Shown: piece after piece, positions 10,023 to 12,656 of the stretch
Layout: every line of letters starts with the position of its first letter
Position numbering within the stretch: the first letter of the stretch is position 1
Assembly (NCBI GenBank): GCA_016218095.1
Contig: JACREV010000086.1
Location: forward strand, 1-36,488
Reading direction: 5' to 3'
Length of the DNA: 36,488 nt
Source: Deltaproteobacteria bacterium
GTDB lineage: Bacteria; Desulfobacterota; GWC2-55-46
Notes under the pieces: generated by a model
Told to the model about the DNA's origin: nothing
Database searches by the model: none
The model's input: only the letters and a program-made list of their open reading frames with translations
Made by a program: the position numbers and the translations under genes

Positions 10023-10502
10023 ATGTTCGAGCTGAAGAAATGGGATCCTTTCAAGGAGCTTTCAAGCATCCAGAGAGACATGGATGACCTCTTCAGAAGG
10101 GTCTTCGGCGGCTTGACGCCCAGTATCCTGAGGAGAGAGGCGTTCAGGGGCGAGTGGTATCCGGCGATCGACTGCTACATGAAGAATACCCAGTTCATAG
10201 TGCACGCGGACCTGCCGGGCGTAAACCCTAAGGACGTCGATATCTCGATTGCGGGTAATGTGCTCACCATCCGCGGCGAGAGGAAGTCCGACGTCGAAGA
10301 GAAGAAAGAGGGGTATCTCTTCCACGAGACCTCTTTCGGGACGTTCGAGAGGGTGCTGACGCTGCCGGAGGGCGTAGACGCCTCCAAGGTGAAGGCCACC
10401 TACAGGAACGGCGTCCTTGAGTTGACCATGCCCGCAAAGGCCGAGGCGCTTCCGAAGAAGGTGACGATCGAGATCGAGGCTGAGACAAAGAAGGCCGCCT
10501 GA
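10023..10502 (+). CDS. Hsp20/alpha-crystallin family small heat-shock protein
   Basis: Alpha-crystallin domain (DLPGVNPKDVDISIAGNVLTIRGERK...FERVLTLPEGVD...NGVLELTMPK). ATG 10023 lies 8 nt after GGAGG (10010-10014). Confidence 0.9.
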   Translation: MFELKKWDPFKELSSIQRDMDDLFRRVFGGLTPSILRREAFRGEWYPAIDCYMKNTQFIVHADLPGVNPKDVDISIAGNVLTIRGERKSDVEEKKEGYLFHETSFGTFERVLTLPEGVDASKVKATYRNGVLELTMPAKAEALPKKVTIEIEAETKKAA

Positions 10503-10550
10503 CCTGAATAGCAAAACCGAAAGGCCACCTCATCTCGTAAAGTGAAAAAA

Positions 10551-10581
10551 CCCTGCAATGGAGCTTGCGGGGTTTTTGTTT
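10551..10581 (+). terminator. rho-independent terminator after hsp20
   Basis: CCCTGCAA (10551-10558) / TTGCGGGG (10565-10572) stem followed by TTTTTGTTT. Confidence 0.6.
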
Positions 10582-10613
10582 ACATTTCTTAATCTTTTAG
10601 ATTTTAATACTCT

Positions 10614-10642
10614 TTGACAATTAACCTATTTTAGGTTATCTT
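10614..10642 (+). promoter_or_regulatory. methyltransferase promoter with embedded palindromic operator
   Basis: TTGACA (10614-10619), 17 nt, then TATCTT (10637-10642). The spacer contains the perfect palindrome TAACCTA-TTT-TAGGTTA (10622-10638). The ATG at 10649 is only 6 nt past the -10, so the transcript is probably leaderless. Confidence 0.5.
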
Positions 10643-10648
10643 CTTCAT

Positions 10649-11410
10649 ATGAAACAAACCCCATTACCTTTTACCGCAGAAAAGAATTCCAAAAAACGCA
10701 TACAAGGTGGCGAAGCCACTACAAATGTACTGCTTTCAGCTTATACTGGAAGCAACGCAGATATATTTCCACATATATTATCATTGCATGTCCCTGCCGG
10801 TGCTCATATCGCTGATGTCACCTACGGCAGAGGAGTTTTCTGGCGCAATGTAAATTTGTCCAAATATGTACTCTACCCAACTGACATCTCACACGGCATT
10901 GATTGCCGTGCGTTGCCTTACAATGATGCTTCGCTTGATGTGGTCGTGCTTGACCCACCCTACATGGAAGGATTATTTCGTAATCAAATCCAGCATAAAG
11001 CTGGCGGAGGTTCTCATTCTGCTTTCCGCAATTATTACAGCAACGGCGATGAAGTTTCTTCGGGCGCAAAGTGGCACGCGGCAGTAACCGATTTATATTT
11101 CAAGGCAGGCTCAGAAGCTTACCGTGTTCTAAAGGATAATGGAGTTTTGATAGTTAAATGTCAGGATGAAGTTAGCGCAAATCGCCAATGCCTTACCCAT
11201 GTCGAGATTATTAACGAATATGAAAAAAATGGGTTCTATACTAAAGACCTATTTATCGTAGTACGCACAAACAGGCCTGTTATCACACGCTTAAAAAAAC
11301 AAGTACACGCAAGAAAAAACCACAGCTATTTTTTGGTTTTTATAAAGCTTTCGGTAGGGAAAAGTAGTTCTCGCTTCCGTTCGCGCACAAACTCTTCTAA
11401 AAGCAGATAA
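10649..11410 (+). CDS. DNA methyltransferase (amino-MTase, DPPY motif) of a type II R-M system
   Basis: AdoMet motif I-like [11 protein letters not shown], followed about 45 aa later by catalytic VVLDPPY. Low-GC gene, convergent with the C-R pair. Confidence 0.7.
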
Positions 11411-11979
11411 GGGTCCTCATGATATGGGGGTTTTGGAGGCCATGTTACATCCATTAGCGTTGCAAGTAAATATTGCCGCTGCTCATATGTATAGCCTTTC
11501 CAAGAACTACGGGGAAGGTTTTCATTTTTAGCAAATACAAATCTCCATTTTTCCTCGAATGCAAAAAGATTAATTGCAAGCAAATCAAACTCGCCTGCTA
11601 CGAGACAAGTCGTTTCCAGTTTTTCACCATTTGGCAAGCAAACAACGCGCCTGTCACTTGCATCCACCTGTGTTTTCCCATACCACGTACCATCATCCAG
11701 TTTTCGAATAGTATTCGTTTGCAATGATTTAACCTCTATGACTATGTCAACCCCCTTATATACGATATGTCTGTCACCTTTACGCTTACGGTCATGATCG
11801 TCGGCTTTGCCGATTTTAGATATTCCTTCATGCCCAAGAAACATATCATGGAACTTTTTTTCGGCCACATATCCTAACAACATACCTCTGAGACTCGGAT
11901 TGTTTTCAACAATAGATGTCAGCTCACGAGCTGTTATCTGCCACTTATTCAATATTGTTTTTGGCACAATGATCCTCAA
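11326..11979 (-). CDS. putative type II restriction endonuclease (PD-(D/E)xK-like)
   Basis: [17 protein letters not shown] fits D-x14-E-x-K. The gene is immediately downstream of, and overlaps, the C-protein gene. I recognise no family by eye. Start is uncertain (TTG 11979, GTG 11967). Confidence 0.55.
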
Positions 11980-12202
11980 GTTCTTTTAAAATTTTATATG
12001 GTTCCAAGCCCAGCGCCTTTGCAACTTCTAGAAATTCCACTATATCAAGCCTACGCTCACCACGCTCATATTTGGAAACATACGACTGAGGTCTCCCAAG
12101 CCGCATAGCCACATCAGCCTGTGCTAAACCTTTCTTTTTTCGGGCTTCAACCAAACGAGTTCTAAACAAGTTATAAGTATCTGAAAATATAGATTTGCTC
12201 AT
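11945..12202 (-). CDS. XRE-family HTH controller (C) protein of the R-M system
   Basis: HTH_3-like LAQADVAMRLGRPQSYVSKYERGERRLDIVEFLEVAKAL. 85 aa from ATG 12202. Its 3' end overlaps the nuclease ORF. The listed GTG at 12211 abuts the -10 box and is rejected. Confidence 0.75.
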   Translation of the reverse strand: MSKSIFSDTYNLFRTRLVEARKKKGLAQADVAMRLGRPQSYVSKYERGERRLDIVEFLEVAKALGLEPYKILKELEDHCAKNNIE

Positions 12203-12211
12203 TGGACCCAC

Positions 12212-12249
12212 ATTATAAAACCCAAAACAGAATAACCCAAATCGGGTTA
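12212..12249 (-). promoter_or_regulatory. C/R operon promoter with C-box-like operator
   Basis: Minus strand has TATAAT (12217-12212) 9 nt before ATG 12202, so the transcript is leaderless or nearly so. The weak -35 TTGGGT overlaps TAACC-CAAATCG-GGTTA (12233-12249). Confidence 0.45.
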
Positions 12250-12258
12250 TTCTGTTTT
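12224..12258 (-). terminator. 15-bp perfect hairpin; probable terminator of the DUF488 gene (bidirectional), also carries the C-box-like site
   Basis: AAAACAGAATAACCC (12224-12238) / GGGTTATTCTGTTTT (12244-12258), loop AAATC. T-runs follow on both strands. Confidence 0.5.
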
Positions 12259-12311
12259 ACAAATAGAGTTGTTATTTCAGATTTTTTACTAAGAAAAAAC
12301 AAGAAAGATTT

Positions 12312-12656
12312 TTAAAGCATCTCCTTAAGGAGTTTCCTGTGGCATGGTTCATTTTCTTTGCAGGTGCAAAGGAGTGTCACATCCTTACGGGCGGTCTTGA
12401 CGATCGATTTGAGTTCGGCAAGGAGCTCCCTTTTGCGTGGGTCTTTCTTGAATTCTTCCTTGTATGCGCGGGTAAACTCCGTCCACTCCATCTCTCCGGC
12501 CTTCCATTTCTTAATGAGCGCGGCCTGCGGCCCGAGGTCTTTTATCCACAGGTCCTGCGCCTCTTTCCTGACGCCCCTCGGCCAGTACCTCGTCACGAGC
12601 ACTCGTACGCCGTCCTTTTCATCCGGCTCGCTGTAGACGGACTTTGTCTTGACCAT
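12312..12656 (-). CDS. DUF488 (YeaO-like) family protein
   Basis: Characteristic VRVLVTRYWPRGVRKE...WIKDLGP...LLCTCKENEPCHR sequence. GGAGG lies upstream of the ATG. Confidence 0.8.
   Translation of the reverse strand: MVKTKSVYSEPDEKDGVRVLVTRYWPRGVRKEAQDLWIKDLGPQAALIKKWKAGEMEWTEFTRAYKEEFKKDPRKRELLAELKSIVKTARKDVTLLCTCKENEPCHRKLLKEML

Follow-up and report, generated by a model that had tools for sequence, protein, structure and literature searches.

Probable control of both promoters of a convergent restriction-modification cassette by one EcoRV-type C protein through three predicted operators

Can one controller protein set the activity of both promoters of a small restriction-modification (R-M) system, and in which direction would it move each of them? 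The question is raised by a 36,488-nucleotide (nt) stretch of DNA from a Deltaproteobacteria bacterium (contig JACREV010000086.1 of GenBank assembly GCA_016218095.1). We refer to this whole stretch as the window, and all coordinates are those of the window. It contains an R-M cassette (10559-12315) in which a methyltransferase gene (M) converges on an operon made of a controller gene (C) and a predicted endonuclease gene (R), in the order M -> <- R <- C. An initial annotation of the sequence had noticed the gapped palindrome TAACC-N7-GGTTA in the promoter of M and again in the promoter of C and R (the C/R promoter), and had proposed that it is a shared operator for the C protein, a protein of the XRE type. 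We compared the locus with related loci and with R-M systems described in the literature. We think it probable that the 1.76-kb island is a mobile type II R-M cassette whose two promoters are both under the control of an EcoRV-type C protein acting at three operators.

We found that the M promoter is built around the palindrome. Its -35, TTGACA (10614-10619, plus strand; 10/12 in a promoter scan), and its -10, TATCTT (10637-10642, plus strand), are separated by a spacer of 17 nt. The spacer is filled by a single predicted C operator, OM (10621-10639; core AACCTATTTTAGGTT at 10623-10637), which matches the pattern exactly. The palindrome, TAACCTATTTTAGGTTA (10622-10638), is a perfect 7+3+7 repeat (TAACCTA-TTT-TAGGTTA), and the -10 overlaps its last two bases. 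The start codon of M, ATG 10649, is 6 nt past the -10. Every coordinate that the initial annotation had given for this promoter was right.

The C/R promoter, on the minus strand, contains two predicted operators. The strong, distal one, OL (12232-12250; core 12234-12248, ATAACCC-GATTT-GGGTTAT on the minus strand), holds the second copy of the pattern, TAACCCAAATCGGGTTA (12233-12249). The promoter-proximal half of OL forms a weak -35, TTGGGT (12235-12240), and 17 nt further on is a -10 with the sequence TATAAT (12212-12217), 9 nt ahead of the C start codon at 12202. These positions, too, had been correctly placed before. The second operator, OR (12217-12235; core 12219-12233, ATTCTGTTTTGGGTT on the minus strand), is weaker and had been missed. 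The centres of OR and OL, which adjoin, are 15 bp apart. OR takes up the C/R spacer, and a single base separates it from TATAAT.

The presence of these palindromes in the two promoters is not explained by chance. TAACC-N7-GGTTA occurs exactly twice in the 36.5-kb window. A shuffle test of the pattern with one mismatch allowed gave an expectation of 0.52, and is weak on its own. The relaxed core AACC-N7-GGTT is found at 11 places in the 2.43-Mb genome, compared to 8 for the reversed control. Two of the 11 are inside the 1.76-kb island, where ~0.008 would be expected (probability of at least two, ~3e-5). We also scored the window with a weight matrix trained solely on sites upstream of distant C homologues. 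The top three matches were OL (25.2 bits), OM (22.7 bits) and OR (18.1 bits). The next-best score in the window was 9.3; null maxima had a median of 8.7, with 14.4 as the 95th percentile. Based on the genome counts and the matrix null, we reject a chance origin of the paired palindromes. The earlier argument that a palindrome found twice, each time inside a promoter, points to a shared operator is in agreement with the genome-wide count, with the matrix, and with the related loci described below.

Sites and promoters are conserved in close relatives of the window locus (WIN; related loci that we fetched have L-numbers). Relatives of R are encoded at eleven loci. In five (L001-L005; C proteins 52-80% identical to that of the window), the C-R/M layout is that of the window and both promoters contain the sites. 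The other six (L006-L011) encode homologous R and M proteins and have neither a C gene nor an operator site. Five more loci (L094-L098, four of them distinct; C proteins 77-83% identical) were taken from 564 C relatives, with generic names only, that came from a homologous-protein search. These have the same C/R promoter, and L094-L097 have the same M promoter as the window; the contig of L098 ends short of it. The C/R -10 (TATAAT; TAGGAT in L004) and the M -35 are each kept in 9 of 9 close relatives. When nine loci were compared in a fixed register, similarity set in abruptly at OL and, on the other side, exactly at the M -35. The sequence upstream of these two points is unrelated from locus to locus, as expected for cassettes inserted at different places. 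The recognition helix of the C protein, PQSYVSKYERGERRLD, is invariant in the window and L001-L005 (six proteins, 52-80% identity).

The arrangement extends to distant relatives. With the C alignment as query we obtained over 548 genomic relatives, of which we used the best 80 (46-64% identical, from many phyla). For 61 dereplicated homologues, we made an unbiased count of every gapped 4+4 palindrome within 150 nt upstream. AACC-N7-GGTT ranked first (22 of 61 loci; ~0.08 expected from control DNA) and ATCC-N7-GGAT ranked second (17 of 61 loci; ~0.1 expected from control DNA). Paired sites at a distance of 15 or 16 bp are present in 72 of 77 distinct upstream regions, and the distal site, equivalent to OL, outscores the proximal one, equivalent to OR, in 61 of 77 distinct loci. 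TAnnnT lies one base past the proximal site in 36 of the 77, and in 68 of them the distal site has TTG at core positions 9-11. Operator symmetry does not account for this bias in orientation, which agrees with a -35 that is part of the operator. Within the distal operator, the central 7 nt are themselves asymmetric (L001-L098): read toward the C gene, they are nearly always YRTTTTG, which creates the TTG of the -35.

The M side is conserved in the same way. A further site lies 1.5-2.3 kb downstream of C, immediately before a convergent open reading frame (ORF), in 39 distinct loci. Five representative ORFs, drawn from four size classes, all encode PF01555 methyltransferases. In 22 of the 39 loci, a -35 hexamer with TTG is placed three bases ahead of the 15-bp core, and TAnnnT begins at the last core base in 32 of the 39. 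Mean scores in 36 loci were 22.1 bits for OM, 20.9 for OL and 15.6 for OR, and OM was the most symmetric of the three. In numbers, sites in M promoters are symmetric at 13.1 of 19 positions, versus 10.7 for distal sites.

We found that the C protein belongs to the C.EcoRV family. By BLASTP, it is 52% identical to the C product of plasmid pLG13 over 50 amino acids (aa) in the helix-turn-helix (E 2e-19). We read the EcoRV C-box directly from pLG13, which we located with the R.EcoRV protein as query. This C-box consists of OL AACCCATTTTGGGTT and OR ATCCCATTTTGGGGT, then G, then CATAAT. The operator class was set by the pLG13 C-box, by the operators of the protein QseC2 (see below) and by the count in 61 homologues. 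On this sequence comparison, the window C protein, its operator A(A/T)CC-N7-GG(T/A)T and its C/R promoter are of the C.EcoRV family (Sorokin motif 7).

EcoRV resembles the window in most features of C and R. The C proteins are homologous, C overlaps R in one operon, and the operator is AACC/ATCC-N7-GGTT. In both, the -35 TTGGGT is inside OL, a weaker OR 15 bp away fills a 17-nt spacer, and the -10 (CATAAT in EcoRV, TATAAT in the window) begins one base past OR. The two systems differ in M. In EcoRV, M is divergent, shares the C-box region, and is controlled indirectly by competing overlapping promoters (PMC5333194). The M gene of the window is convergent instead, with a separate promoter 1.6 kb away whose spacer contains a third operator. 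The enzymes are also unrelated to those of EcoRV, as R has no sequence match in the PDB and M is a 253-aa DPPY enzyme. The proposal of an XRE-type C protein with a shared operator on both promoters is supported by approximately 90 loci and by the EcoRV system. Repression of M through an occluded spacer, which had also been predicted, is supported by the same loci and by comparison with EcoRV and Esp1396I.

Based on these results we suggest a circuit in which an EcoRV-family C protein governs both promoters, and we regard it as likely. We infer C binding, the sign of regulation at each promoter and the order of occupancy. Upon entry into a cell lacking C, the strong M promoter (TTGACA-17-TATCTT) would fire and methyltransferase would build up. 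The C/R promoter (TTGGGT-17-TATAAT) would yield a near-leaderless C-R mRNA from which C would be translated poorly, and R would be translated from a GTG inside the end of C. As C rises, its dimers would occupy the two best sites, OM and OL. With OM filled, the whole spacer and part of the -10 would be covered, which should exclude RNA polymerase and lower expression of M. With OL filled, overlapping the weak -35, C would help polymerase and raise C and R, by analogy to EcoRV, which has the same geometry. At still higher levels of C, the weaker OR, in the spacer beside the -10, would fill, and the C/R promoter would be shut and R capped. A 15-bp hairpin over OL (see below) would end read-through from the DUF488 gene, whose native terminator is lost, and would keep R under the control of C.

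Activation of C/R followed by repression had been part of the initial annotation. It needs a second site at this promoter, and OR is such a site. According to PMC2175313 and PMC5333194 (both citing Semenova 2005), OL is bound better than OR by C.EcoRV, OL is enough for activation, and occupancy of both sites leads to repression. Because the geometry of the EcoRV C/R promoter is identical, activation and then repression is our best guess for the window.

However, activation is uncertain, and C might only repress, as QseC2 does. QseC2 of ICEMlSymR7A (Mesorhizobium japonicum) is, like the window protein, of the C.EcoRV family and has paired operators. It binds two ATCC-N7-GGAT operators in electrophoretic mobility shift assays and surface plasmon resonance (PMC8789080), and it shuts one promoter at low protein level and its own at high level (PMC8789080). 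Unlike the window system, QseC2 is outside R-M systems, is a pure repressor of its constitutive own promoter, and has as its second target a divergent antisense promoter. If the window C protein acted as a repressor only, the same three operators would be used and C would never activate. Both promoters would be constitutively active on entry; low C would shut M, and higher C would throttle C/R through OL and OR. Any delay in R would then come solely from poor leaderless translation of the C-R mRNA, from the GTG start of R, and from head-on transcription over the M/R overlap, which is 85 bp long and contains no terminator.

Several points weigh against the activating circuit, and some of them favor pure repression. 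The perfect, consensus TATAAT and the TTG-type -35 (TTGGGT) are at the optimal spacing of 17 nt, and the C/R promoter may be active without C. The counterpart promoter of QseC2 is strong even when the protein is absent, and no effect other than repression was seen (PMC8789080). OL is centred at approximately -36 to -39 and covers the -35, which looks repressive on general grounds, and OR fills the spacer. In addition, the training sites of the matrix were picked with the pattern from the same clade, and the scores are a rough proxy for affinity. The hairpin, with 5 G-C pairs of 15 and a U tract interrupted by GGG, may terminate poorly. On the other side, EcoRV shares the operator and the promoter geometry of the window, and activation from OL is reported for it (PMC2175313, PMC5333194). 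Moreover, a restriction gene fully on at entry would be dangerous for the cassette, endangering establishment of a mobile element in its host. We consider it rather unlikely, on balance, that C only represses.

A different reading concerns only the C/R palindrome, which might be the terminator of the DUF488 gene, its likeness to the M palindrome being coincidental. OL is nested in a perfect 15-bp hairpin (12224-12258, minus strand; arms 12224-12238 and 12244-12258, 5-nt loop), which is followed by TTTTGGGTTTT on the minus strand. The hairpin is terminator-like in a minus-strand scan and dominates the fold of 12195-12320 (z = -4.2). In a relative, G001, DUF488 is directly followed by a GC-rich bidirectional terminator, which is missing in the window. 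The 15-bp arms are as described in the initial annotation, and its suggestion that the hairpin could also serve as the DUF488 terminator is plausible from the scan, the fold and the loss of the native terminator, although the stem is AT-rich. As the only function of the palindrome, termination is contradicted by the comparative data. The core palindrome, without long arms, is kept upstream of C in ~75 distinct loci with unrelated neighbours, including EcoRV, and a stem of 4-6 bp would not end transcription. We therefore reject this role as the sole one and regard it as very improbable. The right arm of the hairpin, GGGTTATTCTGTTTT, which is the right half of OL plus the left half of OR, is conserved. 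Just the left-arm extension is specific to the window: the left arm, AAAACAGAATAACCC, is missing from all 8 close relatives. It is plausible that the operator palindrome was extended into a terminator after insertion, curbing read-through from DUF488 into C-R. A search of the hairpin against Rfam gave just a meaningless match to a microRNA family (22 bits; gathering threshold 90).

It is equally hard to believe that the palindromes are targets of the methyltransferase (methylation-sensitive promoters; compare AhdI and CfrBI), or of a DNA-binding domain carried by M, and not of C. For AhdI, methylation and not C controls M, and PMC2691842 describes this autoregulation of the M promoter, but in the loci analysed here the palindrome follows C and not the class of M: it is found beside four unrelated methyltransferase classes and near genes outside R-M systems (e.g., the traR/qseM-type region of Mesorhizobium), it is missing from C-less cassettes with homologous M, and a domain search of M found no helix-turn-helix domain. 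We reject this role as well.

The C-less cassettes have a regulator-like gene of another kind. In L006-L010 (e.g., L006:3395-3655), a gene for a Xis/MerR-type helix-turn-helix protein of 68-86 aa lies upstream of M in the same orientation, and R and M are 52-57% identical to those of the window. The XRE-type C protein in one set of cassettes and the Xis/MerR-type gene in their sisters look like a swap of unrelated controllers. The sequence CTTGCG(Y)A(W)GCGTT is conserved at the start of M in the C-less cassettes. No conserved palindrome was seen upstream of their Xis-type gene.

Members of the C family are also found in other settings. A Mesorhizobium homologue (L082:684-3765; 56% identical) has paired ATCC-N7-GGAT sites, with traR-like, qseM-like and other XRE genes nearby. 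This quorum-sensing and integrative and conjugative element (ICE) transfer context, as for QseC/QseC2, indicates that the family is not confined to R-M systems. Plasmid pTHAF100_c of Vibrio aquimaris (L092; 4.8 kb) encodes a member of the family, with an annotated convergent methyltransferase and an unannotated endonuclease gene. Plasmid pAV7K of Aeromonas veronii (L093) encodes another; the sole neighbour seen is a hypothetical ORF just downstream of C.

The initial annotation had also noted that both transcripts look leaderless, and the related loci support this. The M start codon is 5-6 nt after the -10 in the window, L001-L004 and L094-L097, with no Shine-Dalgarno sequence. It is 11 nt past the operator core in L026, L038, L055 and L065, as in the window. 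The conserved distance places the A of the M start codon where transcription normally starts, and the M mRNA is probably leaderless, starting at the A of ATG 10649. In each of nine close relatives, 8-9 nt separate the -10 from the C start codon. Neither a purine-rich tract nor a Shine-Dalgarno sequence is conserved before M or C in the close relatives. This conserved spacing is consistent with leaderless starts for both M and C/R.

Leaderless expression appears to be a trait of the window's clade and not of the whole family. Among the 48 C genes of the wider family for which a -10 can be recognised, 32 start more than 10 nt from it and hence have leaders, and 40-nt leaders that include Shine-Dalgarno sequences are seen in other methyltransferase classes. 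In L005 (L005:2740-3594; C 52% identical), C is fused in frame to R, giving a C-R protein of 284 aa. The operator, which has a GGAGG after it, precedes the start codon by ~77 nt; from this distance and the GGAGG, the mRNA of L005 would not be leaderless. Natural fusions of C to a restriction endonuclease (C-REase) are known, according to a mention in PMC4824078 of PMC3850674.

Reports on the EcoRV C mRNA differ. A leaderless start is implied by PMC2691842 and PMC4824078 and denied by PMC5333194. On pLG13, the first ATG is 11 nt past CATAAT. In the C-R operons of AhdI and PvuII, the C mRNA starts at the start codon or 1-3 nt before it (PMC2175313, PMC2632904). These operons are also like the window in having OL and OR 15 bp apart and the -35 in the region of the OL/OR junction (PMC2175313, PMC2632904). 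They are unlike it in their C family and operator, and in having no recognisable -10, where the window has TATAAT.

The system whose logic the initial annotation had invoked is Esp1396I. We found that the comparison holds for the convergent wiring and for the operator on the M promoter, but not for the protein and operator family or for the leaders. Esp1396I has convergent M and C-R units, with two C sites at C/R and one at M (PMC2691842), as predicted for the window. To repress the convergent M promoter, C.Esp1396I uses one site of high affinity (PMC2691842, Bogdanova et al. 2009). The best of the three sites is the M-promoter site in Esp1396I, and also here by matrix score and symmetry (means given above). 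In contrast to the window, Esp1396I has a C protein of the PvuII family with GACT/TATA/AGTC operators, and its two mRNAs carry Shine-Dalgarno sequences in leaders that are 27 and 20 nt long (PMC2691842). It has a bidirectional terminator between the two units; the window has the 85-bp M/R overlap instead. Judged from sequence, the system is one of EcoRV-family parts in an Esp1396I-like wiring, and it is widespread in metagenome-assembled genomes. A literature search found no earlier description of this combination, and a full-text search with the exact operator strings found no paper.

The literature treats control of two promoters by one controller as a peculiarity of Esp1396I. Our results indicate that such wiring is common, with 39 distinct loci from many phyla in a fixed register (-35, three bases, 15-bp core, -10 on the last core base). 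As a tentative proposal, which we hold as possible and no more strongly, dual-promoter control might be the way in which a large and unstudied group of convergent cassettes with EcoRV-type C is normally built. A portable module (C, the OL/OR promoter, and an M promoter with the operator in its spacer) would have been joined to at least four methyltransferase classes and replaced by a Xis/MerR-type gene in sister cassettes, and in the window's clade both mRNAs would be leaderless and the two genes would overlap at their tails with no terminator. If this is true, leaderless translation and head-on transcription would matter for timing as much as C does. The loci provide a second, independent family for testing direct repression of M by C, a natural series of OM, OL and OR variants, and a case in which the M mRNA, besides the C mRNA, is apparently leaderless. 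The control circuit itself is a known one, which turns out to be widespread; the cassette is a well supported, if unsurprising, new example of it.

The cassette is AT-rich and imported. Its GC content is 0.34-0.47 within 10559-12315, compared to 0.55-0.65 in the flanks. It lies between hsp20 (10026-10502, plus strand) and the DUF488 gene (12312-12656, minus strand). At its left edge is the hsp20 terminator (10546-10577, plus strand; 13 pairs and then a T run in a terminator scan). Homology to four genomes of the same genus (L107-L110) ends at ~10536-10558 and restarts at 12315/12316. In these genomes hsp20 and DUF488 are also adjacent, with different content between them. The breaks in homology at the cassette edges point to an import at a variable spot. 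In one of the relatives, the gap between hsp20 and DUF488 is a 235-bp spacer with a GC-rich bidirectional terminator. In the other three, it contains one or two genes for PEP-CTERM proteins.

M (10649-11410, plus strand) encodes a predicted 253-aa N6/N4 DNA methyltransferase with a DPPY motif (PF01555, E 9.9e-9; MTase_II in PADLOC). R (11326-11970, minus strand) encodes a 214-aa protein that had no match in Pfam, NCBIfam, PADLOC or PDB sequences. We obtained an AlphaFold model from 14 homologues (predicted local distance difference test score, 78), and the best Foldseek match was I-Ssp6803I (E 1.3e-4), followed by R.SwaI and Hjc/RecU. According to this model the fold of R is that of a PD-(D/E)XK nuclease, and its role as the endonuclease is predicted. 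R most likely starts at GTG 11970, which is preceded by the Shine-Dalgarno sequence GAGGA (11973-11977); homologues begin at the aligned codon. We preferred this start and rejected TTG 11979.

C (11945-12202, minus strand) encodes an 85-aa XRE helix-turn-helix protein (HTH_3, E 2.4e-12; Control_protein in PADLOC, 1.7e-10). Its matches among PDB sequences include C.AhdI (2.3e-8) and C.BclI (3.3e-5). The 3' end of C overlaps the start of R by 26 nt, and the GTG of R is inside this end. The start of C at ATG 12202 is conserved, and L002 and L004 are without the upstream in-frame start favored by gene callers. We rejected the 88-aa form of C that gene callers begin at GTG 12211, as this codon abuts TATAAT and is out of frame or absent in L002 and L004. 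Early starts of this kind were called in the window (12203-12211) and in L094-L098, each at an (A/G)TG right after TATAAT and giving 88 aa. Similarly, the C.EcoRV coding sequence of pLG13 (L111:981-1280) is annotated as 99 aa, with a start upstream of its own operators, which are then inside the ORF. Gene callers begin these C genes too early.

The convergent 3' ends of M and R overlap by 85 bp (11326-11410, both strands), and we found no terminator between the two genes. The overlap is 58-97 bp in the relatives in which both genes were called (L094-L098). The R stop codon is 13 codons earlier in L001-L005, L094 and L095, and this stop is lost in the window and L097. The resulting extra tail of R (…FTKTKK) seems conserved, as a by-product of the conserved C-terminus of M on the opposite strand.

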